32,000 bases of DNA from Candidatus Saccharimonadota bacterium (GTDB taxonomy: Bacteria; Patescibacteriota; Microgenomatia; UBA1406; GWC2-37-13), in the NCBI GenBank assembly GCA_016432445.1, contig CP066689.1:1050001-1082000 (forward strand), in the 5' to 3' direction. The notes beneath the pieces are model-generated. The model was not told the DNA's origin and made no database searches. It was given only the letters and a program-made list of their open reading frames with translations. Positions 16,635 to 32,000 of the stretch are shown piece by piece. The first letter of the stretch is position 1; each line of letters opens with the position of its first letter. A program made the position numbers and the translations under genes.

Positions 16635-17258
16635 ATGTATACAGAAATACTGCATTCAATCCTTATCACCGCTGCGCTGGCTCTCTCCTTTCTGATAAGC
16701 AAAACCTCTTTGGCAGTCTATGATTTACAAATAAGCGCCTTCCTTTTTATTGTCTTTTTTATAGGAAAAAAGTGGCTGGATAAAGGTCAGCATAAACTAA
16801 TAGAGTCGCTTGTTTTTGCTTTTATTATCAACATGATTGTCAGCACAACAGGAGCGGCTCAATCGCCTTATTTTTTCCTTTATTATTTTCTTTTGTTCTC
16901 ATTAAGTCTTTTTTTGGAACCCGTTATTGCCATTACAGCCACTATTGCTGTAATTTTCTTCTCTCTATTGTCTTTATCTCAGATACAAACTCTCGACCAG
17001 GTCTTGCCAATTTTATCGCTTGCCTTAATTACGCCATTTGCTCTTTTTTTGGGAGAAGAACATATCAAAAACCAAATTTCAAATGTCAAATTACAAAATT
17101 TGGAAAAAGACAGTTACTTTTTTCTTTCTTTAGTATTAAAAAATCACATCAATAATATTAACCAAGCGGCAGAAAATTTTTTAGGCGACCGCGAGCTTGA
17201 AGAAATCAAAAAAAATGTCAAAAGAATCAAGAAATTGATTGAAGAATATGAGAAATAG
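16635..17258 (+). CDS. polytopic membrane protein, function unknown
   Basis: About five hydrophobic helices followed by a charged C-terminal coil. A heptamer insertion encodes ISNVKLQ at the TM/coil boundary. TATACT lies 7 nt upstream of the ATG. Confidence 0.5.
   Translation: MYTEILHSILITAALALSFLISKTSLAVYDLQISAFLFIVFFIGKKWLDKGQHKLIESLVFAFIINMIVSTTGAAQSPYFFLYYFLLFSLSLFLEPVIAITATIAVIFFSLLSLSQIQTLDQVLPILSLALITPFALFLGEEHIKNQISNVKLQNLEKDSYFFLSLVLKNHINNINQAAENFLGDRELEEIKKNVKRIKKLIEEYEK
17072..17103 (+). repeat. HEP-A array, in frame in the membrane ORF 16635-17258
   Basis: CCAAATTTCAAATGTCAAATTACAAAATTTGG encodes QISNVKLQNL. Confidence 0.85.
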
Positions 17259-17266
17259 ATATAAAC

Positions 17267-17360
17267 TCAAATGTCAAATGTCAAATGTCAAATGTCAAAA
17301 CTTTAGATTTCTTTTAGCATTGGGAATACTTTTGATATTTGGAATTTGGATTTTGAAATT
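17267..17360. repeat. HEP-A hairpin-type element: (AAATGTC)x4, spacer, (ATTTGRA)n
   Basis: There are four perfect AAATGTC units at 17269-17296. The opposing arm TTTGATATTTGGAATTTGGATTTTGAAATT lies at 17331-17360. The whole element is translated as the signal peptide of the downstream ORF. Confidence 0.9.
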
Positions 17361-18033
17361 AAGCAAAGTGCATGCCGCCAATATGGAGTCGAGCCGATTT
17401 CGGATTCAAGGAGGAAATATCAACATTGGCGCCACTTCACCCTCATCTGCAAGCTACAATCTCTCAATGACTTTAGGTCAGACTGCAGCTGGTCAGTTTA
17501 GCCGCGACGGCTATATTGTTAAAGCCGGATTTCAGTACATTTACTCTATTATCCCTTTTAGATTTTCTATCTCGGATATCTCCATTGACCTAGGAACACT
17601 TGTCCCCAACACCCCTTCAACCGCAGCCACTACTCTTACAGTCTCATTTGGCAGTGCCGGCCAGTATCAAGTTACGGCAGTAGAACTGGGCACCTTAAAA
17701 ACCCTAAGCGATAATTCAATTGATGATACCGTTTGTAATGGAGGAGGATCAGCTTGCAGTGAATCAAGCTCCAATCTCTGGACATCAAGCTCGGCTTATG
17801 GTTTTGGCTATAATATGAGCGGTAATGATGTGCCGTCAGACTTTCTCAGCTCTGACTATTATCGCCCTTTTCCTGACAGTACTGTTGCGGAAAGTCCTGC
17901 TGTGGTCATGTCAAATGCTGATGTCGGAAGTAACCGCCAGTCAACCGTCACCTTTAAAACTAATATCTCGACCATACAGCCTGCCGGATCTTATCAGACT
18001 ATTATCAATTTTGTAGCCACACCATCATTTTAA
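17278..18033 (+). CDS. secreted beta-rich surface protein, paralog of the C-terminal domain of 22518-23987
   Basis: It has a signal-peptide-like N-terminus (MSNVKCQNFRFLLALGILLIFGIWILKLSKVHA). It shares ...C.G....C.ES.S..WT..S.YG.GY... and a terminal QPAGSY....F.AT.SF with the 489-aa paralog. The start is uncertain: 17239 TTG, 17248 ATG or 17278 ATG. Confidence 0.55.
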   Translation: MSNVKCQNFRFLLALGILLIFGIWILKLSKVHAANMESSRFRIQGGNINIGATSPSSASYNLSMTLGQTAAGQFSRDGYIVKAGFQYIYSIIPFRFSISDISIDLGTLVPNTPSTAATTLTVSFGSAGQYQVTAVELGTLKTLSDNSIDDTVCNGGGSACSESSSNLWTSSSAYGFGYNMSGNDVPSDFLSSDYYRPFPDSTVAESPAVVMSNADVGSNRQSTVTFKTNISTIQPAGSYQTIINFVATPSF

Positions 18034-18035
18034 TA

Positions 18036-19028
18036 ATGAAAAATATAATAATTATAATTGTTATAACGGTTATAGCGGTTATACAAGCGACTGAAGCGAG
18101 GGCACAACAGGTTTCTCTTTCTATCTCTCCTCCGCTTTTAGAGGTAGCTATAAAACCCGGAAAATCAATACTTATTGCTTATACATTAAGAAACTATGGC
18201 GATCCAACTATTCTTAAAGCCCGTATCCTTCCTTTTGAACCTTTAGGCAGTACCGGCAATATAAAGATAAAAAATGAACTTGAAGGACCAATTCAGTTTT
18301 TTTTAGATAATGCCGATTTTAATCTGGGTCAGCCGTTTTTTTTAAAAAGCGCTGATTCTCAACAGCTCCTTTTGAGAATAAAAGCAGCCGAAGGTACGCC
18401 TGAAGGAGATTACTATTACACACTTCTTAATGAGACTGAACCTTCAGCCGGACTGTCTGGAGTGAGCTTATCTCAGGCTAAAGCAACACTAGGCTCTAAT
18501 ATTTTAATTACCGTTACTGAATCAGGAAAAATTGACATTCAGGGTAAAATTTCCCTGTTTGATGTTATCTCGCGATACTCTTTTTCCTTTTTTGGACGTC
18601 AGCTAAAGTTATTTGACAGCTCCGATCTTATCCCGGTCACTATTCAAGTTGAAAACCGGGGTAAAAACTTTATTAAACCTGAAGGACAAATTGAGTTAAG
18701 AGGCAACTTCGGAGAAAAAGCCGAGTACTCTATTATTCCAAAAAATATTTTAAGCGAGTCTCAAAGGCTTCTTTCAGCTACGCCCTCAGCAGCTTTAGAC
18801 TGCGAAGATAAAAAAAATAATAAGCTTTGCAAAAGTCCTGTCTCTTTACTTATCTCCGGTTTTTTCATTGGCAGTTATAAACTTTCAACGACTGTAAGTT
18901 TTGGTGATGGTTCACCTAATCTTTATGCCTCAGCCTCATTTATTGCTCTACCTTTAAAACTCATTCTCGGAGTTTTGACCACTTTTATTCTCGGCTTTTT
19001 TCTCATTATTAAAATGAGAAAATCTTAA
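18036..19028 (+). CDS. signal-anchored Ig-like/chaperone-like protein (DUF916-like), C-terminal TM anchor
   Basis: It has a signal peptide ending IQATEARAQ, a beta-sandwich-like pattern (ISPPLLEVAIKPGKS..., EGDYYYTLL) and a C-terminal TM plus KMRKS. It is a paralog of 23994-25001. The DUF916 resemblance is from memory of the family pattern. Confidence 0.5.
   Translation: MKNIIIIIVITVIAVIQATEARAQQVSLSISPPLLEVAIKPGKSILIAYTLRNYGDPTILKARILPFEPLGSTGNIKIKNELEGPIQFFLDNADFNLGQPFFLKSADSQQLLLRIKAAEGTPEGDYYYTLLNETEPSAGLSGVSLSQAKATLGSNILITVTESGKIDIQGKISLFDVISRYSFSFFGRQLKLFDSSDLIPVTIQVENRGKNFIKPEGQIELRGNFGEKAEYSIIPKNILSESQRLLSATPSAALDCEDKKNNKLCKSPVSLLISGFFIGSYKLSTTVSFGDGSPNLYASASFIALPLKLILGVLTTFILGFFLIIKMRKS
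18047..18084 (+). repeat. NON-E 9-nt array encoding a signal-peptide core
   Basis: TTATAATTG TTATAACGG TTATAGCGG TTATACA is translated as IIIVITVIAVIQ. Confidence 0.8.
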
Positions 19029-19128
19029 AGAAACTAAGGCTCTGCAAAGCTAAGCTTAATCCTCATTTCCTCAACTTTGTTGATTATAAACTATAGAAAC
19101 ATTGTCTCTTTAAGCTCATTATGAGCTT

Positions 19129-19785
19129 ATGGAAATTTTAAAAGAATGGTTACAACAATTTTTAACAAAATACAAAATCGAGATAGTCCTTATCACTCTT
19201 TCTTTAATTATTGTAGCTGTATCTGTCATAATTTATTTGAAGGAAAGTACTGATTTTGAAGAAACTAAAGAAACTAATCTTGTTAAACGATCTTTTACGC
19301 CAAAAGCAGATTTAAATAAGATTTCCGTATATATTACCGGTTCAGTTGAAAAACCTGACGTTTATGAAGTAACAGCTAAAACTAGATTAAAAGAAATTTT
19401 GGAAAAGGCCGGCGGATTATCAATATCTGCTGATAAAGATTTTTTTAACCGTAATTTTAACCTGGCTCAAACTTTTAATGATCAGGATAAAATATATATT
19501 CCTTCTTATCTTGAAGTACAGCTTGGCCTTTTTGTTGAGTCACCTCAAATCTTGAGGATAAACCAAATAGCTAATCTACCTCCTCAACAAGTTCAGGATG
19601 ATGAGTCGGCTATAAATATTAATACCGCCTCGACCGAAGAACTTGATGAACTTCCAGGAGTTGGCCAAACAACAGCCGAGAAGATCATTAATAACCGCCC
19701 CTACACCTCAATCGAAGAATTGTTAAACAAAAAAATCCTGAAAAAAAACATATATGAAAACATAAAGGAAATAATAAGTTTATAA
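19129..19785 (+). CDS. comEA: DNA-uptake protein ComEA (TM + SLBB-like + helix-hairpin-helix)
   Basis: N-terminal TM, then ISVYITGSVEKPDVYEV (SLBB-like), then C-terminal ININTASTEELDELPGVGQTTAEKIINNRPYTSIEEL (HhH). Confidence 0.85.
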   Translation: MEILKEWLQQFLTKYKIEIVLITLSLIIVAVSVIIYLKESTDFEETKETNLVKRSFTPKADLNKISVYITGSVEKPDVYEVTAKTRLKEILEKAGGLSISADKDFFNRNFNLAQTFNDQDKIYIPSYLEVQLGLFVESPQILRINQIANLPPQQVQDDESAININTASTEELDELPGVGQTTAEKIINNRPYTSIEELLNKKILKKNIYENIKEIISL

Positions 19786-19802
19786 CAATTATAACCGTTA
19801 TA
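19781..19802. repeat. NON-E 9-nt array abutting the comEC start
   Basis: TATAACAATTATAACCGTTATATG. The final unit overlaps the ATG at 19802. Confidence 0.7.
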
Positions 19803-20581
19803 TGCCTGACATAACTATCGTTACTTCTGTTATCAATAACTATATTCCAGAGCCCCAAGCCTCACTATTGAATGGAATTCTTTTTGGTGTGCCTTTATCC
19901 AAGTCCGGTAGGTTGTATGAACAACTTAAGATCTTAGGACTACTTCATATCATAGTTTTGTCCGGGTTAAACATCACTTTATTAGCCTCATTCGTGAGTT
20001 TTTTGACTGCCTTTTTTAGCAAACAGTTATCCTTATTGATAACAATACTAACTGTAATATTGTTCATTGCTTTCGTAGGTCCTCAAGCCCCAATTGTCAG
20101 AGCTGGTTTTATGGGAATATTAACGTTCGTAGCAATATTGTTAGGTAGACGAACAATAGCCATTTATTCTTTATTGATATCGATTTTATTTATTGCTGTT
20201 TTTTGGCCGGCATGGTTAAAAAGCATTTCTCTTTATTTGTCTTATGGCGCAACCTTGGGAATCATACTATTTGCCGGTTCAGAGTCTAAAACTAATTTTT
20301 TAATTCAGGATTTACGGATTACTCTTAGTGCTCAGCTTTTTACTGCACCTTTGATTTTAATATATTTTAAACAGTTTTCGCTGATTGCTCCTTTATCCAA
20401 CCTTTTTGTATCTTTTATCATCCCGCCTCTCATGATGTTTGGATTTGCAACGGTAATACTTGGAAAGATAAACTTTTACCTCGGGCTTCCTTTTGCCTAC
20501 ATCTGCTATGGCTTACTAACCTATATTGTCCTTGTAGGCGAGCTGTTATCAAAACTGCCTTATATCTTTTTTCAGTTTTAA
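19802..20581 (+). CDS. comEC: ComEC, membrane 'competence' domain only
   Basis: Polytopic membrane protein beginning EPQASLLNGILFGV, typical of the Competence-domain entry. It follows comEA directly. There is no N-terminal OB-fold (DUF4131) region. Confidence 0.75.
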   Translation: MPDITIVTSVINNYIPEPQASLLNGILFGVPLSKSGRLYEQLKILGLLHIIVLSGLNITLLASFVSFLTAFFSKQLSLLITILTVILFIAFVGPQAPIVRAGFMGILTFVAILLGRRTIAIYSLLISILFIAVFWPAWLKSISLYLSYGATLGIILFAGSESKTNFLIQDLRITLSAQLFTAPLILIYFKQFSLIAPLSNLFVSFIIPPLMMFGFATVILGKINFYLGLPFAYICYGLLTYIVLVGELLSKLPYIFFQF

Positions 20582-20585
20582 AGCT

Positions 20586-21521
20586 ATGGATAAACCTCCG
20601 GTTACTAAAAGAATTGTCCTTATAACCTTAGTCCTATCCCTTATTGTAATAACCGTCATCTTCATTTCAAATTTTTTTGACACGCGGACAAAAATTGTCT
20701 TTTGTGATGTGGGACAAGGAGACGGAGCCTATATCAGAGTAAAAAATAAGATTGATATTGTCATAGACGCCGGACCCGGCAAAAAGGTACTTAACTGCTT
20801 AGGCAAGCACATGCCTTTTTTTGACAAAGAGATTGAGATTGCCATAATAACCCATCCTCAAACTGACCATTATGGAGGTTTTTTGCCAATGCTTGAAAGA
20901 TACAAAATTAATACGTTCGTAATAGACTCATTTGATACTCCTAACTCGTCTTTCAAGGAATTATTGCAAAAAATAAAAGAAAAAAAATCTAGGATATCTG
21001 CTTTTTTTCAAAATGATGAGATCAACTTGGGTGAATCTAGGATAATTTTCCATTGGCCGCCGGCTACGAACGACGAACGACGAACGCAGAACGATCCCAA
21101 TAACTTGTCTTTAATCTTCACTTATGAAGAAAATGCCTTGCCTGCCGGTCTTCGACTCCGAGGTCGCTCAGACTCGAGGAGCAGGCAGGGTTTTAGAGTG
21201 TTGTTTACAGGAGATGCAACACCAAAGGTATTAAATAAACTGTTGAAACAACAAAACTTAAAATCTAATATTTTAAAAATTCCCCATCATGGCTCAAAGA
21301 ACGGGCTGACTAAAGAATTTTTGCAGTTAGCAGACCCCGAGCTGTCAGTGATAAGTGTTGGCAGAAAAAATGCTTATGGTCACCCTTCAAAAAACGTTAT
21401 AGACATGTTTAAAGCCCTGAAGAAAAAATATTTAAGAACAGATCAAGAAGGAGACATCGTTTTTAAAATCCAAAGTACAAATGTCAAATCATTTAGATTT
21501 TGGATTTCATTTGAAATTTGA
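20586..21521 (+). CDS. comEC: ComEC metallo-beta-lactamase domain, separate ORF with its own TM
   Basis: FCDVGQGDGAYI, ITHPQTDHYGG (HxHxDH-type), LFTGDA, KIPHHGSKNG and GHPS are present. It starts 4 nt after the stop of the preceding ORF. It contains two in-frame repeat insertions and a repeat-encoded tail. Confidence 0.8.
   Translation: MDKPPVTKRIVLITLVLSLIVITVIFISNFFDTRTKIVFCDVGQGDGAYIRVKNKIDIVIDAGPGKKVLNCLGKHMPFFDKEIEIAIITHPQTDHYGGFLPMLERYKINTFVIDSFDTPNSSFKELLQKIKEKKSRISAFFQNDEINLGESRIIFHWPPATNDERRTQNDPNNLSLIFTYEENALPAGLRLRGRSDSRSRQGFRVLFTGDATPKVLNKLLKQQNLKSNILKIPHHGSKNGLTKEFLQLADPELSVISVGRKNAYGHPSKNVIDMFKALKKKYLRTDQEGDIVFKIQSTNVKSFRFWISFEI
21064..21094 (+). repeat. HEP-F heptamer array, in frame in the comEC MBL ORF
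   Basis: The units CTACGAA CGACGAA CGACGAA CGCAGAA CGA encode ATNDERRTQND. Confidence 0.8.
21136..21190. repeat. GC-rich hairpin element with ~10-bp terminal inverted repeats, in frame in the comEC MBL ORF
   Basis: CCTTGCCTGC...GCAGGCAGGG flank an internal GACTCCGAGG/GACTCGAGGA duplication. It is translated as ALPAGLRLRGRSDSRSRQG and sits just before the conserved LFTGDA strand. Confidence 0.75.
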
Positions 21522-21538
21522 AATTTGACATTTGGATT
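21465..21538. repeat. HEP-A hairpin at the convergent junction comEC-MBL / PaaX-like
   Basis: CAAATGTCAAAT (21478-21489) pairs perfectly with ATTTGACATTTG (21523-21534). It supplies the last codons of the MBL ORF (QSTNVKSFRFWISFEI). Confidence 0.85.
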
Positions 21539-22356
21539 TAGGAGAGAAGGATACTCTTTATCTCTCTAAATATATTGTACGCTTCAAGGCCTATCCATTT
21601 TTCGCCCACCAGATCTATTGGCAGACCGGGATCCTCACGTAAGATAATCACGTACTCGCCAATAACTTTCTTAAATTTGTCTGTTTTACTGCCTTCCTTT
21701 GCCAACGTATCATGCCATTTCTTAAAAAGATCTCTGTATCTCTTATCCAGTTGTGACAATCCCCAAACCTTCTCAATCAAAATTGCACGATCGCCAAAAA
21801 CATATTCGGCTTCAAAAGCCTGTACGTATTTTTCTTCCTCTTTTTGAGATACTAGCTCTTTAAGTGCGTCAATGATCGGATGAGGCGTTAGCCAAAAAGA
21901 TCTGTGCCAAGGACCCAAGCCCCAACCTGAGACTTCGCGTCGAAGTTTATCTCGTAGTTCTCTCTTTTTTTCCGGAATTTCATAAGACAAAATACGCCAT
22001 TTTCCATCCCACTTTTCTTTTAAAAATCTCACGAACGGAAACTCAAGAGCAAGTTTAATAAACCCCTTCTCAGTCAAACGGTATTCAGCTGCATTGTCAT
22101 CCCGACCGGAGTGGAGGCTATAGTCCTGAGCTTGCGAAGGAGATCCCTCGGCTTCACTCGGGATGACATTGGAGGAATAGTTTTTCTCAATCAATCCTTC
22201 TTTTAATAATGCTGAAAGAGTACCGCGGGTTTTTTGGTTTAAAGATAAATCAAAAGCAAGCTGTATGGGCTCTTGCAATTTGACATATGGAAAATTAACG
22301 TCTGATAGTAAAAATAGAGCAAGTAAAATTTTCGTCCGTCTTTCTTTGATTATCAT
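21538..22356 (-). CDS. PaaX-like transcriptional regulator
   Basis: An N-terminal winged-helix-like segment (TRGTLSALLKEGLIE) plus WDGKWRILSYEIPEKKRELRDKLRREVSGWGLGPWHRSFWLTPHP, which is typical of the PaaX C-terminal region. A 72-nt GC-rich element is inserted in frame between the two parts. Confidence 0.6.
   Translation of the reverse strand: MIIKERRTKILLALFLLSDVNFPYVKLQEPIQLAFDLSLNQKTRGTLSALLKEGLIEKNYSSNVIPSEAEGSPSQAQDYSLHSGRDDNAAEYRLTEKGFIKLALEFPFVRFLKEKWDGKWRILSYEIPEKKRELRDKLRREVSGWGLGPWHRSFWLTPHPIIDALKELVSQKEEEKYVQAFEAEYVFGDRAILIEKVWGLSQLDKRYRDLFKKWHDTLAKEGSKTDKFKKVIGEYVIILREDPGLPIDLVGEKWIGLEAYNIFREIKSILLS
22096..22167. repeat. GC-rich 72-nt element with perfect 10-bp terminal inverted repeats GTCATCCCGA/TCGGGATGAC, in frame in the PaaX-like gene
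   Basis: The length is exactly 24 codons, translated as VIPSEAEGSPSQAQDYSLHSGRDD. The GC content contrasts sharply with the host gene. Confidence 0.85.
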
Positions 22357-22365
22357 TTAGGAAAA

Positions 22366-22394
22366 AGAATAACAGACGGAATTTTTACTGTCAA
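22366..22394 (-). promoter_or_regulatory. promoter TTGACA-17-TATTCT, 9 nt upstream of the PaaX-like ATG
   Basis: The minus strand reads TTGACA-GTAAAAATTCCGTCTGT-TATTCT-TTTTCCTAA-ATG. Confidence 0.45.
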
Positions 22395-22411
22395 GAGGAA
22401 TATAACTTTTG

Positions 22412-22433
22412 TAATTGATATATAATTGATATA
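22412..22433. promoter_or_regulatory. tandem 11-bp direct repeat TAATTGATATA x2, candidate operator in a divergent promoter region
   Basis: It is a perfect tandem duplication at one helical turn of spacing, followed by the palindrome TTGTACAA. It lies between the PaaX-like regulator and the surface-protein operon. Confidence 0.35.
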
Positions 22434-22463
22434 AAGGTTGTACAATTACTCATTGAATTGCCC

Positions 22464-22492
22464 TTGACAAAAAATGAAGAATACTCTTTAAT
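22464..22492 (+). promoter_or_regulatory. promoter TTGACA-17-TTTAAT for the surface operon at 22518
   Basis: Consensus -35 with 17-nt spacing. The ATG lies 25 nt downstream of the -10. Confidence 0.45.
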
Positions 22493-22517
22493 TTAGTTTA
22501 TCATTAATTTTTCATTC

Positions 22518-23987
22518 ATGAGAAAAAAACATCTCTGCTCTAAGATTATTCTTTTAGTGATATTTGTTTCTGTCTTTAGCGTTTTCTTCTTCACCAAACC
22601 AAAAAAAGTAGATACTGCAAATTTTACCAATTCTTATGCTCTTTTAAGTAACTCACGACTTTCCTACCGCGCTGGTGTTGGCAATACTACTGCTTCAGGC
22701 GATACCTTTATAACTATTGACTCTTCTGGAAATCCTGACAATAACACTAATCATTTGTTCCCTGGAGATACAGTTTGTTTTGAAGATACTTCTTTAAGCG
22801 CTCCCTGTAGAGAAAGCCGATCAGTTGCAAATATAATCAGCACTACGAGTTTCAATACCTCAACTGGCGCCACTGTGGCTTTGGCCGCCACTGACCTGGT
22901 GATTGTTAAACAGACTGGAAGCCTCACCATAAATTTTTTTACTGCCTCAGAAGTACCTGTTGGCGGAGATCTTTTGGTTACTGTACCGGCCGTAAATTCA
23001 ACCGCTACTAATGATACTTATCCAGATAGTGCCTCAACTGTGGCTGTTAATGGTTTTGATTTAAACGGAGTAGCTGCTGGTGACGTCTCAATTTCAGGTG
23101 GTTGTACCCCTGCTAACTGGGGCAGTGCCACAGTTACAGCCGGAGACGCCAGCAACGACCACACTATCAGATTTGATCGAGTAACGACAGCTTGTTCAGC
23201 ATCAATAGGTATCACTATAACTATTGATGCCTCCCCTGGTTTGCTTAACCCGGCTCCAATAACGTCCGGACATACTCAAGGCGGAGCTGATGTTTACACA
23301 ATAAATGTCAAAAGCCGTGATTCAAGCGACGCCACTATTGATCAAATTGATATTAAAGTAGCGCCGGTTGAGGCTGTATTTGTTTCAGCCACTGTTGATG
23401 AGTCACTGGCTTTTACTATAGCTTCTGTAGGGGTGGGCACAACTGTTTGCGGTCAAGTCGCTGATGTCGCCACTACTGCTATGACTGTACCGTGGGGTAC
23501 TATTTCTACGGCTAACACATTTTCTGAAGCGGCTCAACAGCTGACTGTCTCAACCAACGCAGATGGCGGCTATATCGTGAGAATTGAAGAAAATGACCAG
23601 ATGGGTAAAGATGGGGTAGCCTGTAGTGGCGCTTCGGCTGATGAATCAGTCAACTGTATTAAAGATACTCTCTGCGGCAGTAGCAACTGTTCAGAAAGTA
23701 CTTCTCAAGACTGGACTGATGCCTCAACCTATCAAGGATTAGGCTACTCTATTGAGAATGTCGACGGCACTGATGGCGCTTTTACTTATAGTGAATCTTC
23801 ACGGACATTCTCATCTAGACAATTAGCTGATCAAGAAGCTAGTGAAACTAAAGCTACTATTATGTCCAGTGCCACCCCTGTAAACTCAAAAGATATTTAC
23901 GTCTGCTACCGTATTGCCGTATCAGCTACTCAACCAGCCGGATATTATTATAATAAAGTTAAGTACACAGCCACAGCCACATTTTAA
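22518..23987 (+). CDS. secreted beta-rich surface protein (large paralog of 17278-18033)
   Basis: It has a signal/TM N-terminus, a Thr/Ser/Ala/Val-rich beta-type composition, a Cys-rich loop (CSGASADESVNCIKDTLCGSSNCSES) and a terminal QPAGYYYNKVKYTATATF. It is driven by TTGACA-17-TTTAAT. Confidence 0.55.
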   Translation: MRKKHLCSKIILLVIFVSVFSVFFFTKPKKVDTANFTNSYALLSNSRLSYRAGVGNTTASGDTFITIDSSGNPDNNTNHLFPGDTVCFEDTSLSAPCRESRSVANIISTTSFNTSTGATVALAATDLVIVKQTGSLTINFFTASEVPVGGDLLVTVPAVNSTATNDTYPDSASTVAVNGFDLNGVAAGDVSISGGCTPANWGSATVTAGDASNDHTIRFDRVTTACSASIGITITIDASPGLLNPAPITSGHTQGGADVYTINVKSRDSSDATIDQIDIKVAPVEAVFVSATVDESLAFTIASVGVGTTVCGQVADVATTAMTVPWGTISTANTFSEAAQQLTVSTNADGGYIVRIEENDQMGKDGVACSGASADESVNCIKDTLCGSSNCSESTSQDWTDASTYQGLGYSIENVDGTDGAFTYSESSRTFSSRQLADQEASETKATIMSSATPVNSKDIYVCYRIAVSATQPAGYYYNKVKYTATATF

Positions 23988-23993
23988 TAAATT

Positions 23994-25001
23994 ATGAGAA
24001 ATATAATTAATCTAATTTTTATAATAGTTATAACCTTTATAACTGTTATACAGGCGACTGAAGCGAAGGCTCAAGCTACTCAAATGCTTCAGGTTGCCCC
24101 AGCGCGCCAGGAAATTACTTTAAACCCGGGTGAACAGGCCTCAATAGTAGTAAAATTTTATAATTTTAACGAAACTCCTGTCGCAGGCATTGTTAAGGTT
24201 GCTGACTTTGAAGTCACTGATTCTGACGGCACAGTCAGGATTATTGATACGGCCTCACAGGCTTCACCAAAGTTCTCTGCTTCTCAATGGTTTACTATTG
24301 CCAATGAAAAAGTCATCATTTTCCCTCAAGATAAAGTTACAGTTCAGGCGCAAATAAATGTCTCTACTGATGCTCGCCCAGGAGGAAGGTATGCGGCCGT
24401 ATATTTTGAACCCGCAGAATCTGTATCTCAGCCTGTAAACATTGGTAAAAGTGCCTCAACAGGCATTGCCTCAAGAATCGCCTCACTTATCTATATCAGA
24501 GTTCCTGGAGATACTTTTGAAAAAGCCCTAATTTCACGTTTTTTTGCTTCTTCTTTTCTTGAAAATGGACCTATTAATGTTGAGACTGAGATTCTAAACC
24601 GCGGTGATTACCACATTAGGCCAAAAGGATTTGTCAGCCTAACTGATATGTTTAGCAATGTTCAGGCTCAGGAAAAAATTAAAGAGCATAATATCTTTCC
24701 TGATGCCTCAAGAACCTATAAAAACTCTCTCGGTTCCAAATGGATGCTTGGACGCTATCGACTTGATCTTACTTCCTCTTACGGAGACAAAGCTCAGGTC
24801 ATGACCCGCTTTATTTATGTCTGGGTCTTCCCTTGGAAAATAGCCTTAGCTATAGTTTTGGCTCTCATACTGTTTATAGTCTTTGGAAAAAATATTTATA
24901 AAAAAATAGTTGTTAAAGAAGCTGTCCTTGAAGCCGAGGTTAAAAAAGAAAAAGAAGAGATAGAAGAACTGAAAAAAGAGTTGCGTAAAAAAAATGACTA
25001 A
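23994..25001 (+). CDS. signal-anchored Ig-like/chaperone-like protein (DUF916-like), paralog of 18036-19028
   Basis: The signal peptide is nearly identical to that of the paralog (IQATEAKAQ). Also present: APARQEITLNPGEQ, RPGGRYAAVYF, and a C-terminal TM followed by a K/E-rich coil. Confidence 0.5.
   Translation: MRNIINLIFIIVITFITVIQATEAKAQATQMLQVAPARQEITLNPGEQASIVVKFYNFNETPVAGIVKVADFEVTDSDGTVRIIDTASQASPKFSASQWFTIANEKVIIFPQDKVTVQAQINVSTDARPGGRYAAVYFEPAESVSQPVNIGKSASTGIASRIASLIYIRVPGDTFEKALISRFFASSFLENGPINVETEILNRGDYHIRPKGFVSLTDMFSNVQAQEKIKEHNIFPDASRTYKNSLGSKWMLGRYRLDLTSSYGDKAQVMTRFIYVWVFPWKIALAIVLALILFIVFGKNIYKKIVVKEAVLEAEVKKEKEEIEELKKELRKKND
24021..24052 (+). repeat. NON-E 9-nt array encoding a signal-peptide core
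   Basis: ATAATAGTTATAACCTTTATAACTGTTATACA is translated as IIVITFITVIQ. Confidence 0.8.
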
Positions 25002-25923
25002 TAGTCTTACTCTAATCCTTCTAATCCCCTTAATCCTCCTACTCCCTTTCCCAATATCTGCTGCGTTGCCTCCTCAATCTTCGACTATTCAAGTCTCCGT
25101 CTCAATTGGAGAATACCAGTTCACGCTTTATGGACAGACTTCACCTAGTGCTTTAGTCTCAATTCAGGGTATGGGTATATATGATCAAACCACAGCTGAC
25201 AATGATGGTAATTTTGTGTTTGTAAACCGTTTCTCCCCTTTTTCGCCGCGTGAAGCTTGTATAACTGCTCAGGATCAGTTTGGCAGAAACTCAGCCCCGA
25301 CCTGTCTTCCCCCTTTCCCAACCCGCTACAACGTCACTGTTGGACCGGTTCTTATGCCGGCCACTCTTTCTCTTGATAAAAACGACTATTTTTTGGGTGA
25401 TGAGATAGTTTTGAGCGGACAAACTATCCCCAACAGCGAGGTTAATCTTTCTATGTTTGCTGCAGATACATCTTTATCAAAATATCTGGCATTAACCCCG
25501 ATTGGATCAAAATCAATTTTAAAACGGGAAATCGTCAAATCTGCCCCTGCAATTAAGCTACCTGAGTATAAAACTAAGTCTGATGACAAAGGCAACTTTT
25601 CTATTTCCTTACCGTCATCTAAAACTTCTGACTACCGTTTATTCACTCAGACTGCTGTAGGTAAAGATAAATCACCTAAAAGTATTATCTTAAATCCTTC
25701 AGTTTTACCTTGGTGGATGATTATCTTCAAGTATTTTCTTTTTATCTGGAATATAATACGGCCAAGACTGCTGGAAATTATAATTATTATTGAGATTGCG
25801 GCAACTACCTATTATATTTTCACTCATTATCTTCACCATAAAAAAATAAGAACGCTGATGGTGAGAGAAAAACATGAGATACAAATTACAAAATCCAAAT
25901 GTCAAATGACAAATATCAAATGA
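24994..25923 (+). CDS. secreted/anchored protein with two CarboxypepD_reg-like beta-sandwich repeats
   Basis: It overlaps the upstream stop by 8 nt. Two copies of the G-Q-T-x-P-x-x-x-V...D-x-x-G-N-F pattern are present, with a C-terminal TM. The last ~12 codons are read from heptamer repeats. Confidence 0.5.
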   Translation: MTNSLTLILLIPLILLLPFPISAALPPQSSTIQVSVSIGEYQFTLYGQTSPSALVSIQGMGIYDQTTADNDGNFVFVNRFSPFSPREACITAQDQFGRNSAPTCLPPFPTRYNVTVGPVLMPATLSLDKNDYFLGDEIVLSGQTIPNSEVNLSMFAADTSLSKYLALTPIGSKSILKREIVKSAPAIKLPEYKTKSDDKGNFSISLPSSKTSDYRLFTQTAVGKDKSPKSIILNPSVLPWWMIIFKYFLFIWNIIRPRLLEIIIIIEIAATTYYIFTHYLHHKKIRTLMVREKHEIQITKSKCQMTNIK

Positions 25924-26019: not shown

Positions 26020-26433
26020 TTAATTAAAGCTTACGTGTGCTTTTTGATTTAATGAAGTATCCTCTACTTTAACGCTAACATAATATTCTCCTGCTTGATT
26101 GGCAGTTACATCAAAAACTGATTTACCTAAGTTATCACTTAATCCCTGTATTGCTTCTATACTCAAATGAGGAACAGGCTCGAGAGTTACTTTCTTTCCC
26201 ATCACGCCCAATCCTTGATTGTTTAGTATGAAAACAGTGATACGTATCTTCTCTTGGCCATTGGCCTTGGCCTGTAAAGGACTGACAAAAATATAAGAAT
26301 TATCGGCTGAAAATGAATAACGGCTGACATCAGCCCGGCCAACCATATACTGAGTTTCATAAAACCAAAAGAAACCTGAGAAAGAAATAAGAACAACTAA
26401 AACCATTAATACATAAAAAAATTTCCTGTTCAT
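26020..26433 (-). CDS. membrane-anchored bacterial Ig-like domain protein
   Basis: N-terminal TM followed by a Big-like pattern (KIRITVFILNNQGLGVMGKKVTLEP...VTANQAGEYYVSVKV). I prefer the ATG at 26433 (TATATT 7 nt upstream) over the TTG at 26472. Confidence 0.5.
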   Translation of the reverse strand: MNRKFFYVLMVLVVLISFSGFFWFYETQYMVGRADVSRYSFSADNSYIFVSPLQAKANGQEKIRITVFILNNQGLGVMGKKVTLEPVPHLSIEAIQGLSDNLGKSVFDVTANQAGEYYVSVKVEDTSLNQKAHVSFN

Positions 26434-26690
26434 AATATTAAATATAACATATATTAAAAAAAACAAGGCCAATTGTCATTTAACGCTTCGGATTGATCTG
26501 ATCTGGAAACTTTGTGAAGTCGTCCCGACGTGGCGTCTTTACAGATGATTAAAACAAATTTTACATTTATCAAAATAAACATACGTCTGCTAAAAATTAA
26601 AAAAAAAGCTATAGCTTATTCCATAGACTTGAAACTTAATCAAGTTAACCTGGTGATAAATATTACTTGCAGACGTTAATTTTAAAATAA

Positions 26691-27091: not shown

Positions 27092-27637
27092 ATGCAACTA
27101 CAGTATAATCAGTATAATTTTGAATCTTCTTTTAAAAACTATTTACTTGCGGAAAAAGTAAAACCTGTTACTTTAAAAAATTATCTGTCCGATTTAAGAC
27201 ATTTTTTGGGGTGGTTAACAATCCCATCTCACATCAATGTAGGGACAGGTCGCGACCTGTCCCTACCAGATGAAACGTCATTCATCACCCAAAATCTGAC
27301 CTTAGAAACCCTTGAAAATTACAAGCAGTATCTTATATCAAACAACCTGCCTTTACTAACTGTAAACCGCCGCCTCTCTACTCTTCGTAAGTTTTGCACC
27401 TTTTGTATTTCTCAAGGATGGATGAAGGAGAACCCAGCGAAAAAAATTTCAAATGTCAAATTTCAAATGTCAAGTGCAGGGGTCGGGCGTGACCGACCCG
27501 AGACAATGGATGAGGCAAATATCGGATATGTATTAAAAAAATATAAAACATTCATTGAAAAAGAAGGCCTTTCCAACAATCAAATCGATAAAAATATTAC
27601 AGACGTGAAGGATTTTTTACAAATTATAAATTCATAA
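27092..27637 (+). CDS. tyrosine-recombinase N-terminal SAM-like (core-binding) domain protein, no catalytic domain
   Basis: FKNYLLAEKVKPVTLKNYLSDLRHFLGWL and NYKQYLISNNLPLLTVNRRLSTLRKFCTFCISQGWMKENPA fit the Phage_int_SAM pattern. There are no R..HxxR..Y catalytic residues. Three different repeat families are inserted in frame. Confidence 0.5.
   Translation: MQLQYNQYNFESSFKNYLLAEKVKPVTLKNYLSDLRHFLGWLTIPSHINVGTGRDLSLPDETSFITQNLTLETLENYKQYLISNNLPLLTVNRRLSTLRKFCTFCISQGWMKENPAKKISNVKFQMSSAGVGRDRPETMDEANIGYVLKKYKTFIEKEGLSNNQIDKNITDVKDFLQIINS
27239..27266. repeat. PAL28 perfect copy, in frame in the integrase-N-domain ORF
   Basis: The same 28-mer, translated as VGTGRDLSL. Confidence 0.95.
27445..27473 (+). 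repeat. HEP-A array, in frame in the integrase-N-domain ORF
   Basis: AAATTTCAAATGTCAAATTTCAAATGTCAA encodes ISNVKFQMS. Confidence 0.9.
27480..27499. repeat. GC hairpin GGGTCGG-GCGTGA-CCGACCC, in frame in the integrase-N-domain ORF
   Basis: A 7-bp perfect stem translated as GVGRDRP, in the same ORF as the VGTGRDLSL-encoding PAL28 copy. A single copy was seen. Confidence 0.5.
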
Positions 27638-28079: not shown

Positions 28080-28721
28080 ATGAAAAATCAAAAGAAACAA
28101 ACCCCACTTCGTCTCGTTAAGCAAGACTACGCGGGGCAAGCAATTTACGCTTTTATCGACAGCCAGAATGTCAATCTGGCAATCAAAGACCAGGGCTGGG
28201 CACTCGATTTCGCCAGATTTAAAATATATTTAAAAGATAAATATCACGTTTCAAAAGCCTATTTGTTTATCGGCTTAATCCCAGGTAATCAAAAACTTTA
28301 TGATTTTCTTAAAAAAGCCGGATATATCCTTTTTTTCAAACCAACGCTGGAAATTAAAGACGGAAAAACTAATAAGATTAAAGGGAATGTGGATGCAGAA
28401 TTAGTACTACATTCAATGATTGAGTACCCTAACTATGATAAGGCCATCATCGTAACGGGTGATGGAGACTTTTATTGCTTAGTGGAATATTTGTTACAGA
28501 AAAATAAACTATTACGGGTAATCATACCTAATATAACTAAGTATTCCCGACTATTCTACAAATTTAATCCTTACTTGGCTTTTATGAATAACTTAAAAAA
28601 TAAGCTGGAGCATAAAAAAAGAGAGGCGTCACTTAGGCATGAAAGCCTTCAGTTGTCCTCTCATCGTAATAATATAAATATACCAAAAATTAAAAAGAAG
28701 TCAAGCACAAAAAATGTCTGA
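28080..28721 (+). CDS. NYN-domain (LabA/DUF88-like, PIN-fold) nuclease-like protein
   Basis: AFIDSQNV, KGNVDAELVL and IIVTGDGDFYCLVEYL match the conserved acidic positions of NYN domains. Confidence 0.75.
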   Translation: MKNQKKQTPLRLVKQDYAGQAIYAFIDSQNVNLAIKDQGWALDFARFKIYLKDKYHVSKAYLFIGLIPGNQKLYDFLKKAGYILFFKPTLEIKDGKTNKIKGNVDAELVLHSMIEYPNYDKAIIVTGDGDFYCLVEYLLQKNKLLRVIIPNITKYSRLFYKFNPYLAFMNNLKNKLEHKKREASLRHESLQLSSHRNNINIPKIKKKSSTKNV

Positions 28722-28793
28722 ACCGGCGCGCGCGCCCATCCAGACAAGTTAATAACAGTTTACAAAAAAAATTATTATTTGTCAAGAACGAAT

Positions 28794-31700: not shown

Positions 31701-32000
31701 TCACCTGGTGAGGTGAGCCAGCTTTACAACTGGGCCCCAGGACCACTAGCCTACTGGAATATGGACGAAGCCTCAGGCAATTTAACTGACAGTTCAGGAA
31801 ACGGATACACAGGTACAGCATCAAGCTTAACTGTTGTTCCTGGTAAATACGGCAAAGCAAGAAGCTTCAACGGGAGTTCTAGCACAGTTACGGGATCTGT
31901 CAGTTTCAATGCTGGTTATACGGTTTCATTGTGGGTTAATTCTGCAGGAAACGCCAGCGGCACACAAATGATTTGGGAAGGACAAGATCTTTCTGCTCCA
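28794..32000 (+). CDS. giant surface protein, partial: N-terminal TM, DUF2341-like domain, then at least 4 LamG (Laminin_G_3) modules
   Basis: The frame is open from 28794 to the window end (checked at 30234 and 31671). WTYRQTVAITN...DLRVTD..G..LPFWIE...VWVK...LYVYYGN is DUF2341-like. G(Y)W.(F/M)DE..G...DSSGNGN.G and (M/I/L)DE.(K/R)IYN.ALS..E(I/V)..LY recur. An alternative start is ATG 28992 (MRDLAKRRLLLISLL...). Confidence 0.8.
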   Translation, partial: MTKNPLIKIWYRWEGVIESFISPLLKRGGLRRNVGGRGVLNNKNTSPRSAGDSSYKEENNSVIPHLMRDLAKRRLLLISLLIILIGLPIVFLSLKYQSKTEAAWYNENWTYRQTVAITNSGTAQTDFQVSIGIGTSALIVSGKMQSDCDDLRVTDINGKILPFWIEPTTCNNATNSTTVWVKAPSISTSGTTLYVYYGNPSAPSGASATTQVFIREISNLQGSWNLDESSGTSIADSSGNGNTGTLANAQETNTTLTASTSTSISDTNNGNLSTGQGYDLNGIYNGMTLTMSGASCNVNGESRTISDYTGATKTITVSSAFSATPNTANCGYTINHHIAGKFGNGMAYDGAMDVGDQITTINNAGLNITGSLTMEFWMKFPSGAGGYYNAYMGKSSDNYLIHSYYGQVIFIISNGSYSSNFNNCQTPTNWNHFVATWDGSTRRTYANGSLCTSTSVTTAPASDSGGITIGSGGALNWPTVMDEAKIYNKALSQAEISDLYGTGSNQGYTTSNYANKVLVRKFSSSVSVGSPGSETQGPGPVGYWSFDDGQGTVAQDKSSSKNNGTISGATWTTEDQCISGKCLKFDGSNDVVTVPDSNALTPTDITFSMWIKSPSITGSQTFLGKWYTGTNQRSYYLYTGSSNVGLCISKDGTDPGASCAGSANNTLTNNTWYHITATYHYVTDGTSVIQIYINGVLSGSSSTVGGPIYNSTGNLNISTYDGTNQPFNGFIDEPKIYPYARTAAQVKTDYNSRGSAVKSGSGTALGAKNQDYLSNGLVGYWKMDETASPAVDSSGNGNSGTWTGDATSAVGKFGNGVTLDGTGDYVSLGNPAVLRYGSAITLSVWVKPTVTLQSGSPAESFIRKESGWSGYDLFYDGTNGRIMAILDNGTFNGYVTYNTNLTAGTWYHIVLTYDNSTGVIYVNGAQAASRSFATTVADSGVNLTLGAADGGSSAFNGVLDEARIYNRALSPGEVSQLYNWAPGPLAYWNMDEASGNLTDSSGNGYTGTASSLTVVPGKYGKARSFNGSSSTVTGSVSFNAGYTVSLWVNSAGNASGTQMIWEGQDLSAP
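28857..28998. repeat. cluster of six consecutive hairpins at the 5' end of the giant ORF
   Basis: The six hairpins are: CCCCTCTTCTTAAGAGGGG; CTCCGACGTAACGTCGGAG; GGTGTTTT..AAAACACC; CCCCGCTCAGCGGGG; CTCCTCTTACAAAGAGGAG; TCCCGCACTTGATGCGGGA. Confidence 0.8.

Follow-up and report, generated by a model that had tools for sequence, protein, structure and literature searches.

A probable Pam-type pilus gene cluster, split by comEA and comEC, in a genome of the Microgenomatia

Two gene pairs around comEA and comEC

A large part of bacterial diversity belongs to the candidate phyla radiation (CPR, or Patescibacteria), whose members for the most part live attached to other cells by means that are largely obscure. 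Here we describe a set of surface-protein genes in a 32,000-nucleotide (nt) stretch of contig CP066689.1 (positions 1,050,001 to 1,082,000; the window) and report that it is probably a pilus cluster of the Pam type, a divergent Microgenomatia version of a pilus already known from the CPR. Coordinates are window positions throughout (Table 1), and domain calls come from Pfam and NCBIfam.

The set consists of two gene pairs, A1-B1 and A2-B2, and the gene of a further anchored protein, C2; between the pairs lie comEA, comEC as two open reading frames (ORFs) and the gene of a PaaX-like regulator. The original prediction, made from the sequence alone, described two paralogous pairs around comEA and comEC, each joining a secreted beta-rich protein to one with a signal peptide and a C-terminal anchor. 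Every ORF that it named between 17278 and 25923 is present there, and the paralogy is borne out: residues 101-251 of A1 match residues 322-489 of A2 (34% identity, E 2e-15), B1 and B2 share 23% identity over 311 residues (E 8e-11), and the family hidden Markov models (HMMs) of the two pairs cross-match at about 1e-22 (B1 against B2, 2e-22), with no further matches elsewhere in the 32-kb window. The common C-terminal motif is equally real, A1 terminating in ...IQPAGSYQTIINFVATPSF and A2 in ...TQPAGYYYNKVKYTATATF. By hydropathy, A1 and A2 have an N-terminal hydrophobic segment only, and B1, B2 and C2 have N- and C-terminal ones.

A Candidatus Roizmanbacteria metagenome-assembled genome (MAG; Microgenomatia, CPR/Patescibacteria) encodes a hypothetical protein with 100% identity to B2, and relatives of A2 at 53-61% identity occur in many metagenomes. 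We gathered related loci in a scan of one genome per species, which gave 80 loci, 52 of them holding both halves of the cluster; their gene order was read from tblastn searches with 15 window proteins as queries.

Homology of the secreted proteins to Pam pilins

The Pam pilus was first solved in Candidatus Mycosynbacter amalyticus (Saccharimonadia), as filaments seen by cryo-electron microscopy (cryo-EM; bioRxiv 10.64898/2026.03.03.709456). According to that preprint the system has no usher, and its parts are PamA, PamB, PamE, PamT, PamC, PamD and PamR. In PamA and PamB a beta-sandwich of nine strands forms the N-terminal domain, and a single linker strand joins it to a truncated immunoglobulin-like (Ig-like) C-terminal domain, which takes up the linker of the next subunit; conservation among Pam pilins is highest in this donated linker and in the site that binds it. 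PamT is a single-domain tip subunit, PamC and PamD are PapD/FimC-like chaperones with an unusual C-terminal transmembrane (TM) helix, and PamR, the anchor, resembles RbmA and has a strand at its N-terminus and a helix at its C-terminus. The preprint reports homologues in Saccharimonadia and Microgenomatia, including a PamA-like protein of Roizmanbacteria reached by a language-model search, places the pam genes of Saccharimonadia next to ATP synthase, corB and major facilitator superfamily (MFS) genes, and proposes contact with a host or partner cell for the Mycosynbacter pilus (bioRxiv 10.64898/2026.03.03.709456). NCBIfam has Pam models (NF058579, NF058581 (Pam pilin)), among them 'CPR-type pilus protein PamT' and 'Pam pilus system pilin subunit', with cut-offs of 240 bits for PamT, an equivalog model, and 55 bits for Pam pilin; A1 is matched by both of these and A2 by the second, below the cut-offs.

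A2 (489 amino acids (aa), against 55.3 kDa for PamA) has a signal peptide, an all-beta N-terminal domain at about residues 37-281, a linker, a C-terminal acceptor domain at about residues 297-489 and an invariant C-terminal Phe. Its AlphaFold model, with a predicted local distance difference test (pLDDT) score of 88.3, has the two all-beta domains known from PamA and PamB (residues 37-281 and 297-487), with a low-confidence linker between them. When compared by hhalign with Saccharimonadia pilins that pass NF058581, the A2 family aligns at 98.3% (E 2.2e-14, 237 columns), in an alignment that begins towards the end of the N-terminal domain and runs through the linker to cover all of the C-terminal domain. 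Pam_pilin_C is matched by 52/75 members of the family, below its cut-off, and ten Cys residues are conserved. Our reference pilin, from a Saccharimonadales locus (L092) reached through a relative of B2, scores 170 bits against the Pam pilin cut-off of 55. That locus is a bare pair of pilin and chaperone and has no PamR-like gene. A lone A2-B2 pair with no other cluster genes within 10 kb, like the pair of L092, occurs in another related locus (L028, 8523-10969).

A1 (251 aa, against 25.6 kDa for PamT) starts with a signal peptide; its conserved N-terminal region, about 65 aa long, precedes a C-terminal acceptor domain of the Pam type at residues 101-251. The NCBIfam PamT model aligns with it end to end, at 43 bits (E 3.4e-11), under the cut-off; 48/48 members of its family match this model and 47/48 match Pam_pilin_C, all under threshold. 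In hhalign the A1 family meets bona fide Pam pilins (92.9%, E 3.7e-7) over the C-terminal domain only, starting past the pilin linker. By its sequence A1 thus appears PamT-like, with an acceptor domain and no donor linker.

The linker itself is the most telling part of A2. Residues 283-299 are the best-conserved stretch of the A2 family, with E285, V287, S290 and E295 invariant, and they align with the linker VSASVPETLTF of bona fide Pam pilins. The two groups have in common the motifs VSA(T/S)V(D/P)E(T/S)L.F in the linker, TNA..GY, and the C-terminal ...(Q/T)P(A/P)G.Y......T(A/P)(T/S)(F/Y). A strict form of the first, VSA.[IV].E, occurs in 58/82 ORFs of the A2 family and 9/85 of the C2 family, against 2/2310 unrelated ORFs, and in no A1, B1 or B2 ORF (0/58 for the A1 family). 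In the model of the A2 monomer pLDDT falls below 50 only at residues 288-292, on the most conserved motif of the family, as would be expected of a strand that is ordered only in a polymer.

These results are consistent with the donor-strand arrangement of chaperone/usher type that the original prediction had suggested, which the fold matches of B2 (see below) support as well; they move the donor to another place. The C-terminal ...AT.F strand had been proposed for that part. By homology with PamA and PamB the donor would be the A2 linker at residues 283-299, and the aromatic C-terminal strand of the pilin would, on the Pam model, belong to the acceptor domain.

The analysis shows that the pairs are paralogous, that A1 and A2 are homologous to Pam pilins, that B2 is membrane-anchored and has the predicted fold of a chaperone, and that the genes are conserved together and, in some loci, contiguous. 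The genes had at first been taken for an uncharacterised system, a claim removed by this match to a characterised one. The cluster is not a new kind: the Pam kind and its Microgenomatia homologues were already known, and both the preprint and the NCBIfam models pre-date our analysis. What we add is a minimal gene set, the strict order of pilin then chaperone, the split and contiguous variants of the cluster, and a link between its chaperones and the DUF916/WxLIP family.

Table 1. Features of the pilus cluster and its surroundings in the window
Feature	Position	Strand	Description
TM210	16635-17258	+	207-aa polytopic membrane protein; conserved seventh cluster gene
A1	17278-18033	+	251 aa; predicted PamT-like tip/acceptor subunit; alternative TTG start 17239
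B1	18036-19028	+	predicted membrane-anchored PapD/WxLIP-like chaperone; B2 paralog, presumed partner of A1
comEA	19129-19785	+	Pfam/NCBIfam match; intervening gene, outside the pilus set
comEC, Competence domain ORF	19802-20581	+	Pfam/NCBIfam match; intervening gene
comEC, metallo-beta-lactamase domain ORF	20586-21521	+	Pfam/NCBIfam match; intervening gene
PaaX-like regulator gene	21538-22356	-	PaaX_M E 5.3e-22, PaaX_C E 3.3e-7 (Pfam); divergent from A2
PaaX-A2 intergenic signals	22412-22492	+	tandem repeat and promoter-like site, by reading the sequence
A2	22518-23987	+	489 aa; predicted major two-domain Pam-type pilin
A2 linker, predicted donor strand	23364-23414	+	residues 283-299, PVEAVFVSATVDESLAF
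B2	23994-25001	+	predicted membrane-anchored PapD/WxLIP-like chaperone
C2	24994-25923	+	309 aa; candidate PamR-like terminator/anchor
C2 donor-like mature N-terminus	25093-25113	+	residues 34-40, VSVSIGE
Big1	26020-26472	-	Big_1 (invasin/intimin-type Ig) E 1.3e-10 (Pfam); N-terminally anchored, convergent with C2

Anchored chaperones and the DUF916/WxLIP family

The AlphaFold model of B2 (pLDDT 91.2) has a signal helix, two beta-sandwich domains (residues 32-140 and 178-278), a flexible loop (141-161) with a strand after it (162-170), and a TM helix from residue 281 followed by a charged cytoplasmic helix. Foldseek places Enterococcus faecium WxLIP at the top (9i1y, 3e-13; 9i25, 'WxLIP bound to long WxL', 1e-12), and next come the chaperones of chaperone-usher pili: CfaA (3e-10), YadV (5e-9), DraB (1e-8), CsuC (2e-8), Caf1M (6e-8) and FimC (1e-7), with CupB2 also matched. 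The likeness to the latter is at the level of fold, at 9-16% identity, and RbmA, a tandem Ig fold, also matches. B2 has 28% identity (E 2e-33) to a Saccharimonadales DUF916 protein, P0393, whose gene lies directly downstream of a bona fide Pam pilin, pilin then chaperone as in the window; the HMM of B1 matches the same protein at 1.7e-32. B1 and B2 are therefore best modelled as membrane-anchored, PapD-like two-domain chaperones, the predicted fold of B2 being of that kind.

The original prediction had also seen a likeness to the DUF916 and WxL-type cell-surface clusters, and for the chaperones this held up: WxLIP is the best structural match of B2, and DUF916 (PF06030) matches recur. B2 itself stays under the DUF916 threshold (22.2 bits against 27.3), as do the matches of 27/79 members of the B family. 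Among the CPR relatives that the B profile finds at about 1e-48, two pass the Pfam cut-off, and NCBI names one such relative 'DUF916 domain-containing protein'. On the side of the subunits nothing comparable appeared: Pfam gave no WxL domain in A1 or A2 at E up to 1, and neither WxL nor any other consistent family in 72 bona fide Pam pilins; DUF3324 was found in 0/79 members of the B family; and the WxL chain of 9i25 was outside the top 50 structural matches of A2. Sequence searches of the PDB with A2, B2, the profiles of the B family, the A1 family and Pam pilins, and a further DUF916 protein (P0367) gave chance-level matches only and did not reach WxLIP.

Fold and weak sequence signal together suggest that Pam-type chaperones belong with the DUF916/WxLIP family. 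DUF916 and WxL receive zero mentions in the preprint on the Pam pilus (bioRxiv 10.64898/2026.03.03.709456). WxLIP has been read as a peptidoglycan- and host-binding protein, not as a chaperone (Hassan et al. 2023, PMC10599100), and is predicted by AlphaFold to insert a strand into WxL (PMC10599100). We put forward, tentatively and as something rather less probable than not, that the Pam pili of the CPR and the WxL clusters of Firmicutes are branches of one ancient, usher-less pathway of membrane-anchored chaperones in single-membrane bacteria; a relation of the WxL domain to the Pam C-terminal domain found no support in Pfam or among structural matches. If the pathway were common to both, WxLIP would be a donor-strand chaperone rather than a peptidoglycan- or host-binding protein, WxL proteins would be strand-complemented and possibly polymerising subunits, and the pathway would be very widespread, since the B profile reaches 10,272 representative clusters at 50% identity (E up to 0.001).

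The charged helix of B2 (24894-25001, residues 301-335) is conserved, with the consensus ...KE..LEEEL.KE.EEIEKLK..L.K; chaperones of the B1 type stop right past the membrane anchor. A donor-like 'VSxS' motif in the loop of P0393 and in B1 was dropped, as it is not conserved in the B families.

One cluster, split or contiguous

The genes are co-conserved and their pairing is strict across the 52 species-level loci, which answers the question of gene-pair conservation that the original prediction had raised. In 44 of the loci comEC lies between the halves; seven are contiguous, and one (L058) is an assignment artefact. Most split loci (32) are arranged as in the window, with the comE block inverted in seven more and the TM210-A1-B1 block in five. 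The contiguous loci, from Woesebacteria-like relatives with B2 at 37-44% identity, have TM210-A1-B1-A2-B2-C2 in one run with gaps of 47-226 bp; six of them carry comE elsewhere in the locus and have no PaaX, and the seventh (L083), a short contig, gave no comE match. Since the halves are contiguous in 7/52 related species, we regard them as parts of one system, not as the two separate loci first described; in this Roizmanbacteria lineage the cluster appears to be split in two by a comEA-comEC-PaaX block.

The PaaX-like gene accompanies all 44 split loci and none of the six contiguous loci that carry comE. As had been predicted, it is PaaX-like and divergent from A2; it lies on the minus strand and matches both PaaX_M and PaaX_C, and its position makes its product a possible regulator of A2-B2-C2. 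Two features stand out in the stretch between it and A2. At 22412-22433 TAATTGATATA is repeated perfectly as a tandem direct repeat (x2), a possible operator to which the PaaX-like protein would bind, and at 22464-22492 TTGACA-N17-TTTAAT resembles a promoter that ends 25 nt before the A2 ATG; a promoter scan is uninformative in this AT-rich DNA, with 49 promoter-like sites against 29 expected.

Three further genes complete the cluster or keep it company. In C2 (309 aa, against 32.8 kDa for PamR) a signal peptide precedes two predicted Ig-like regions, and the C-terminal TM segment is followed by a basic tail. The original prediction had called it an anchored protein, which stands, and CarboxypepD_reg-like, for which Pfam gives only matches under threshold (E about 0.003); a Big_6 match is weak as well. 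The mature N-terminus of its family has the consensus VSA.IGE.RF.LFGYTSP, which resembles the pilin linker, and its architecture, size and position are suggestive of a PamR-like terminator or anchor. By hydropathy TM210 spans the membrane about five times within residues 1-141 and ends in a soluble tail. In related loci its gene comes immediately before A1-B1 and shares their inversions. TM210 matches no Pfam or NCBIfam family, and could be a membrane component, not described before, of the Pam cluster of Microgenomatia. Big1 follows C2 in nearly all related loci.

The near-identical signal peptides of B1 and B2, also part of the original prediction, are confirmed, and the likeness reaches into the DNA. 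Between 18014-18108 and 23968-24075, 80/95 ungapped bases are identical (84%), then 3/17; this tract of about 95 nt spans the last codons of the pilin gene, the spacer and the signal peptide of the chaperone gene. It looks like sporadic gene conversion, recent in appearance, rather than a functional signature. A shared targeting signal was considered and rejected as a feature of the family, the two peptides being nearly identical in only 4/51 genomes. Across genomes a small number of signal-peptide types, for example ...LTIPYSL... and ...FVYLFICLFVY..., recur in B1 and B2 and are exchanged between the two genes.

A model for assembly

Read this way, the cluster is a minimal Microgenomatia Pam-type set of tip subunit, one shaft pilin, two anchored chaperones and probable anchor, and would build a usher-less, chaperone-assisted donor-strand-exchange pilus. 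We infer exchange and polymerisation by homology with the Pam pilus, and what follows on assembly order, on C2 and on biological function is likewise proposed. The products of A1, B1, A2, B2 and C2, whose signal peptides are visible in the sequences, would be exported by Sec. A2 would be the shaft subunit, its C-terminal Ig-like domain being short of a strand that the linker (283-299) of the next A2 completes. A1 would sit at the distal tip only and start the fibre, because it has an acceptor domain but no linker.

B1 and B2 would be held in the membrane by their C-terminal helix, each encoded right after its presumed client (A1-B1, A2-B2), and would cap the open groove of that client with the strand that follows the loop (162-170 in B2) until strand exchange. 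An A2 subunit would then be added by swapping the chaperone strand for the linker of the incoming subunit. C2 might end growth by giving the last A2 the strand at its own mature N-terminus, and its C-terminal TM segment would serve as the tether of the fibre. The likely role of such a fibre is attachment to a host or partner cell.

Comparison with known systems

Like the Pam system of Mycosynbacter, that of the window is CPR-specific and without an usher, and would be Sec-exported. The pilin has the same predicted plan of all-beta N-terminal domain, donor linker and incomplete Ig-like C-terminal domain ending in ...G.Y......T(A/P)(T/S)(F/Y), with conserved cysteines; A1 is a probable single-domain, PamT-like subunit; the chaperones combine a PapD-like fold with a C-terminal TM helix; and C2 has the size and topology of PamR. 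The differences are that the window sequences fall below the NCBIfam cut-offs, that there is one shaft pilin and not three, that each pilin gene is directly followed by its own chaperone gene, and that comEA-comEC and a PaaX-like gene split the cluster in most Roizmanbacteria-type genomes. Here it also comes with TM210, which is conserved, and a Big_1 protein, and its neighbours are rplK-rplA-nusG-secE and a giant lectin-domain protein instead of ATP synthase, corB and MFS genes. Pam filaments have been seen in Mycosynbacter, whereas the Microgenomatia system is known here from genes and models alone.

The WxL/WxLIP (Csc) clusters of Lactobacillales resemble the window cluster in the architecture of the anchored protein, the DUF916 signal, the predicted insertion of a strand into a partner and the single-membrane envelope. 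They differ in that no WxL domain, DUF3324 or LPXTG partner was detected in the window cluster, and in that the partners here carry a predicted donor linker and come from a family known to polymerise.

With chaperone-usher pili (Pap/Fim, the class 5 CFA/I pilus of CfaA-CfaB-CfaE, Csu, Caf1) the cluster shares a two-domain PapD-like chaperone, the proposed logic of donor-strand complementation and exchange, a two-domain subunit weakly similar to CfaE, and a strictly conserved aromatic residue at the C-terminus of the pilin. Here, however, there is no outer membrane and no usher (we found no usher-sized beta-barrel gene in or beside the cluster, in the window and the 52 related loci), and the chaperone is membrane-anchored, not free in the periplasm. 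The predicted donor strand is an internal linker rather than an N-terminal extension, the subunits have an extra N-terminal domain, and sequence similarity is not detectable.

Alternative explanations

Several observations weigh against identification of the cluster as Pam-type. All NCBIfam Pam matches are below cut-off: A1 reaches 43 bits against 240 and 24 against 55, and A2 25 against 55, so that by sequence the two would be divergent relatives of Pam proteins, not members as NCBIfam defines them. With default filters the A1 and A2 family HMMs missed the Saccharimonadales pilin, which was matched only by profile-profile comparison and weak BLAST hits; nor did the HMMs of the C2, TM210 and Big1 families match anything in that locus, where, under the same filters, only the chaperone HMMs did. 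The nearest PDB folds of A2, the chaperone-usher two-domain subunit CfaE (6k73_C, 2hb0; the most probable) and SafDAA, are weak, with TM-scores of 0.15-0.26 in a PDB set that lacks PamA and PamB (25PZ, 25QA). There is a single shaft pilin here as against PamA, PamB and PamE in Mycosynbacter, the donor-like motif is found in a minority of the C2 family (9/85 by the strict form, 20/85 by a loose one), and TM210 and Big1, as conserved neighbours, have no place in the Pam model.

One could instead imagine a WxL-type complex that is not filamentous, in which the B proteins permanently hold A1 and A2 on the surface by strand insertion and no polymer forms. WxLIP is after all the best structural match of B2 (9i1y, 3e-13; 9i25, 1e-12), DUF916 matches recur, B1 and B2 share the WxLIP architecture of signal peptide, two Ig-like domains and C-terminal TM helix, the insertion of a WxLIP strand into WxL is predicted by AlphaFold, and one B per A resembles one WxLIP per cluster. 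We nevertheless consider this unlikely: Pfam finds no WxL domain in A1, A2 or bona fide Pam pilins, DUF3324 is found in 0/79 B-family members, and the window sequence holds no LPXTG partner, while A2 has a conserved, predicted donor linker and is homologous to pilins that polymerise into the filaments solved by cryo-EM (bioRxiv 10.64898/2026.03.03.709456). The proteins might also be secreted adhesins or envelope proteins with no relation to pili, which look like pilus parts only in the generic way of Ig-like beta-sandwiches. In favour of this, Foldseek matches A2 only weakly, with integrins and MSCRAMM adhesins among the matches, B2 is matched by tandem Ig folds (RbmA) too, and all database matches are under curated cut-offs. 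Profile-profile homology to Pam pilins over the linker and C-terminal domain with an identical C-terminal ending, strong homology of the chaperones to the partner of a bona fide Pam pilin, and strict gene pairing across 52 loci make this extremely improbable.

The position around comEA and comEC had led the original prediction to a fibre linked to DNA capture; a Pam-type fibre would then be coupled to ComEA/ComEC and bring DNA to the uptake machinery. In addition to the 44/52 loci with comEC between the halves, 6 more have it within about 3 kb; in the window TM210-A1-B1-comEA-comEC lie on one strand with short gaps (101, 16, 4 bp); and a terminator scan gave none that is convincing between B1 and comEA. 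Beyond this conserved gene order we found no support for the idea, and the order itself is not fixed. Orientation has changed in 12/44 split loci (comE block 7, locus-1 block 5), and loci of the contiguous type have comEA-comEC and the metallo-beta-lactamase (MBL) gene in a leuS operon, after leuS, on the opposite strand and transcribed away from the pilus genes. In GCA_025057905.1 comEA, comEC and the MBL gene are fragmented and A1, B1, A2, B2 and C2 are intact, a decay confirmed in an independent Logan assembly (L010 6900-9150, L011 2080-4330). In both, the three decayed genes can be aligned with the proteins of the window only by way of several reading frames and short ORFs, and they look like pseudogenes. 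Adjacency moreover says little, as the ribosomal-protein (rplK-rplA), nusG and secE neighbours are equally syntenic; the words comE, competence and DNA uptake are absent from what the Pam preprint says of the pam neighbourhood in Saccharimonadia (bioRxiv 10.64898/2026.03.03.709456); and Pfam and NCBIfam give no nucleic-acid-binding domain in A1, A2 or C2. A coupling to DNA uptake is thus very unlikely, and the comE bracketing is best read as inherited gene order, a reading that guards against over-interpreting the position of comEA-comEC as a sign of a DNA-uptake fibre.

A Pam-type pilus cluster, with attachment as its likely role, remains our preferred explanation. It is well conserved in Microgenomatia and missed by curated models, which makes its genes targets for annotation, structure prediction and the imaging of enrichment cultures.

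Neighbouring genes and further observations

The comEC gene of the window is present as two ORFs 4 bp apart, a Competence ORF of 259 aa and a metallo-beta-lactamase ORF of 311 aa, in neither of which an N-terminal region of OB/DUF4131 type was detected. The split also occurs in relatives (259 + 299 aa in L006).

Further downstream, a giant ORF of at least 1093 codons begins at 28722 and runs beyond position 32000, with DUF2341 and three lectin-like Laminin_G_3 domains. Relatives have a single giant protein of 1900-2300 aa with a phage-integrase SAM-like domain at its start; in the window this domain is a separate 181-aa ORF (27092-27637), with an NYN-domain gene (28080-28721) in between, which suggests that an insertion split the giant gene. 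At the same position one related locus (L008) has a protein with a Peptidase_S74 (tail-fibre chaperone) domain. The giant or Peptidase_S74 protein may correspond to the 'tail fibre-like protein' that adjoins pam operons (bioRxiv 10.64898/2026.03.03.709456).

Many cluster-bearing MAG records that are GTDB representatives (L013, L014, L017-L019 and others) are titled 'uncultured Gammaproteobacteria bacterium', and others Ectothiorhodospiraceae, Melioribacter or Nevskiaceae. They carry the Microgenomatia-type cluster beside CPR-type ribosomal genes, and their names look like placeholders or errors.

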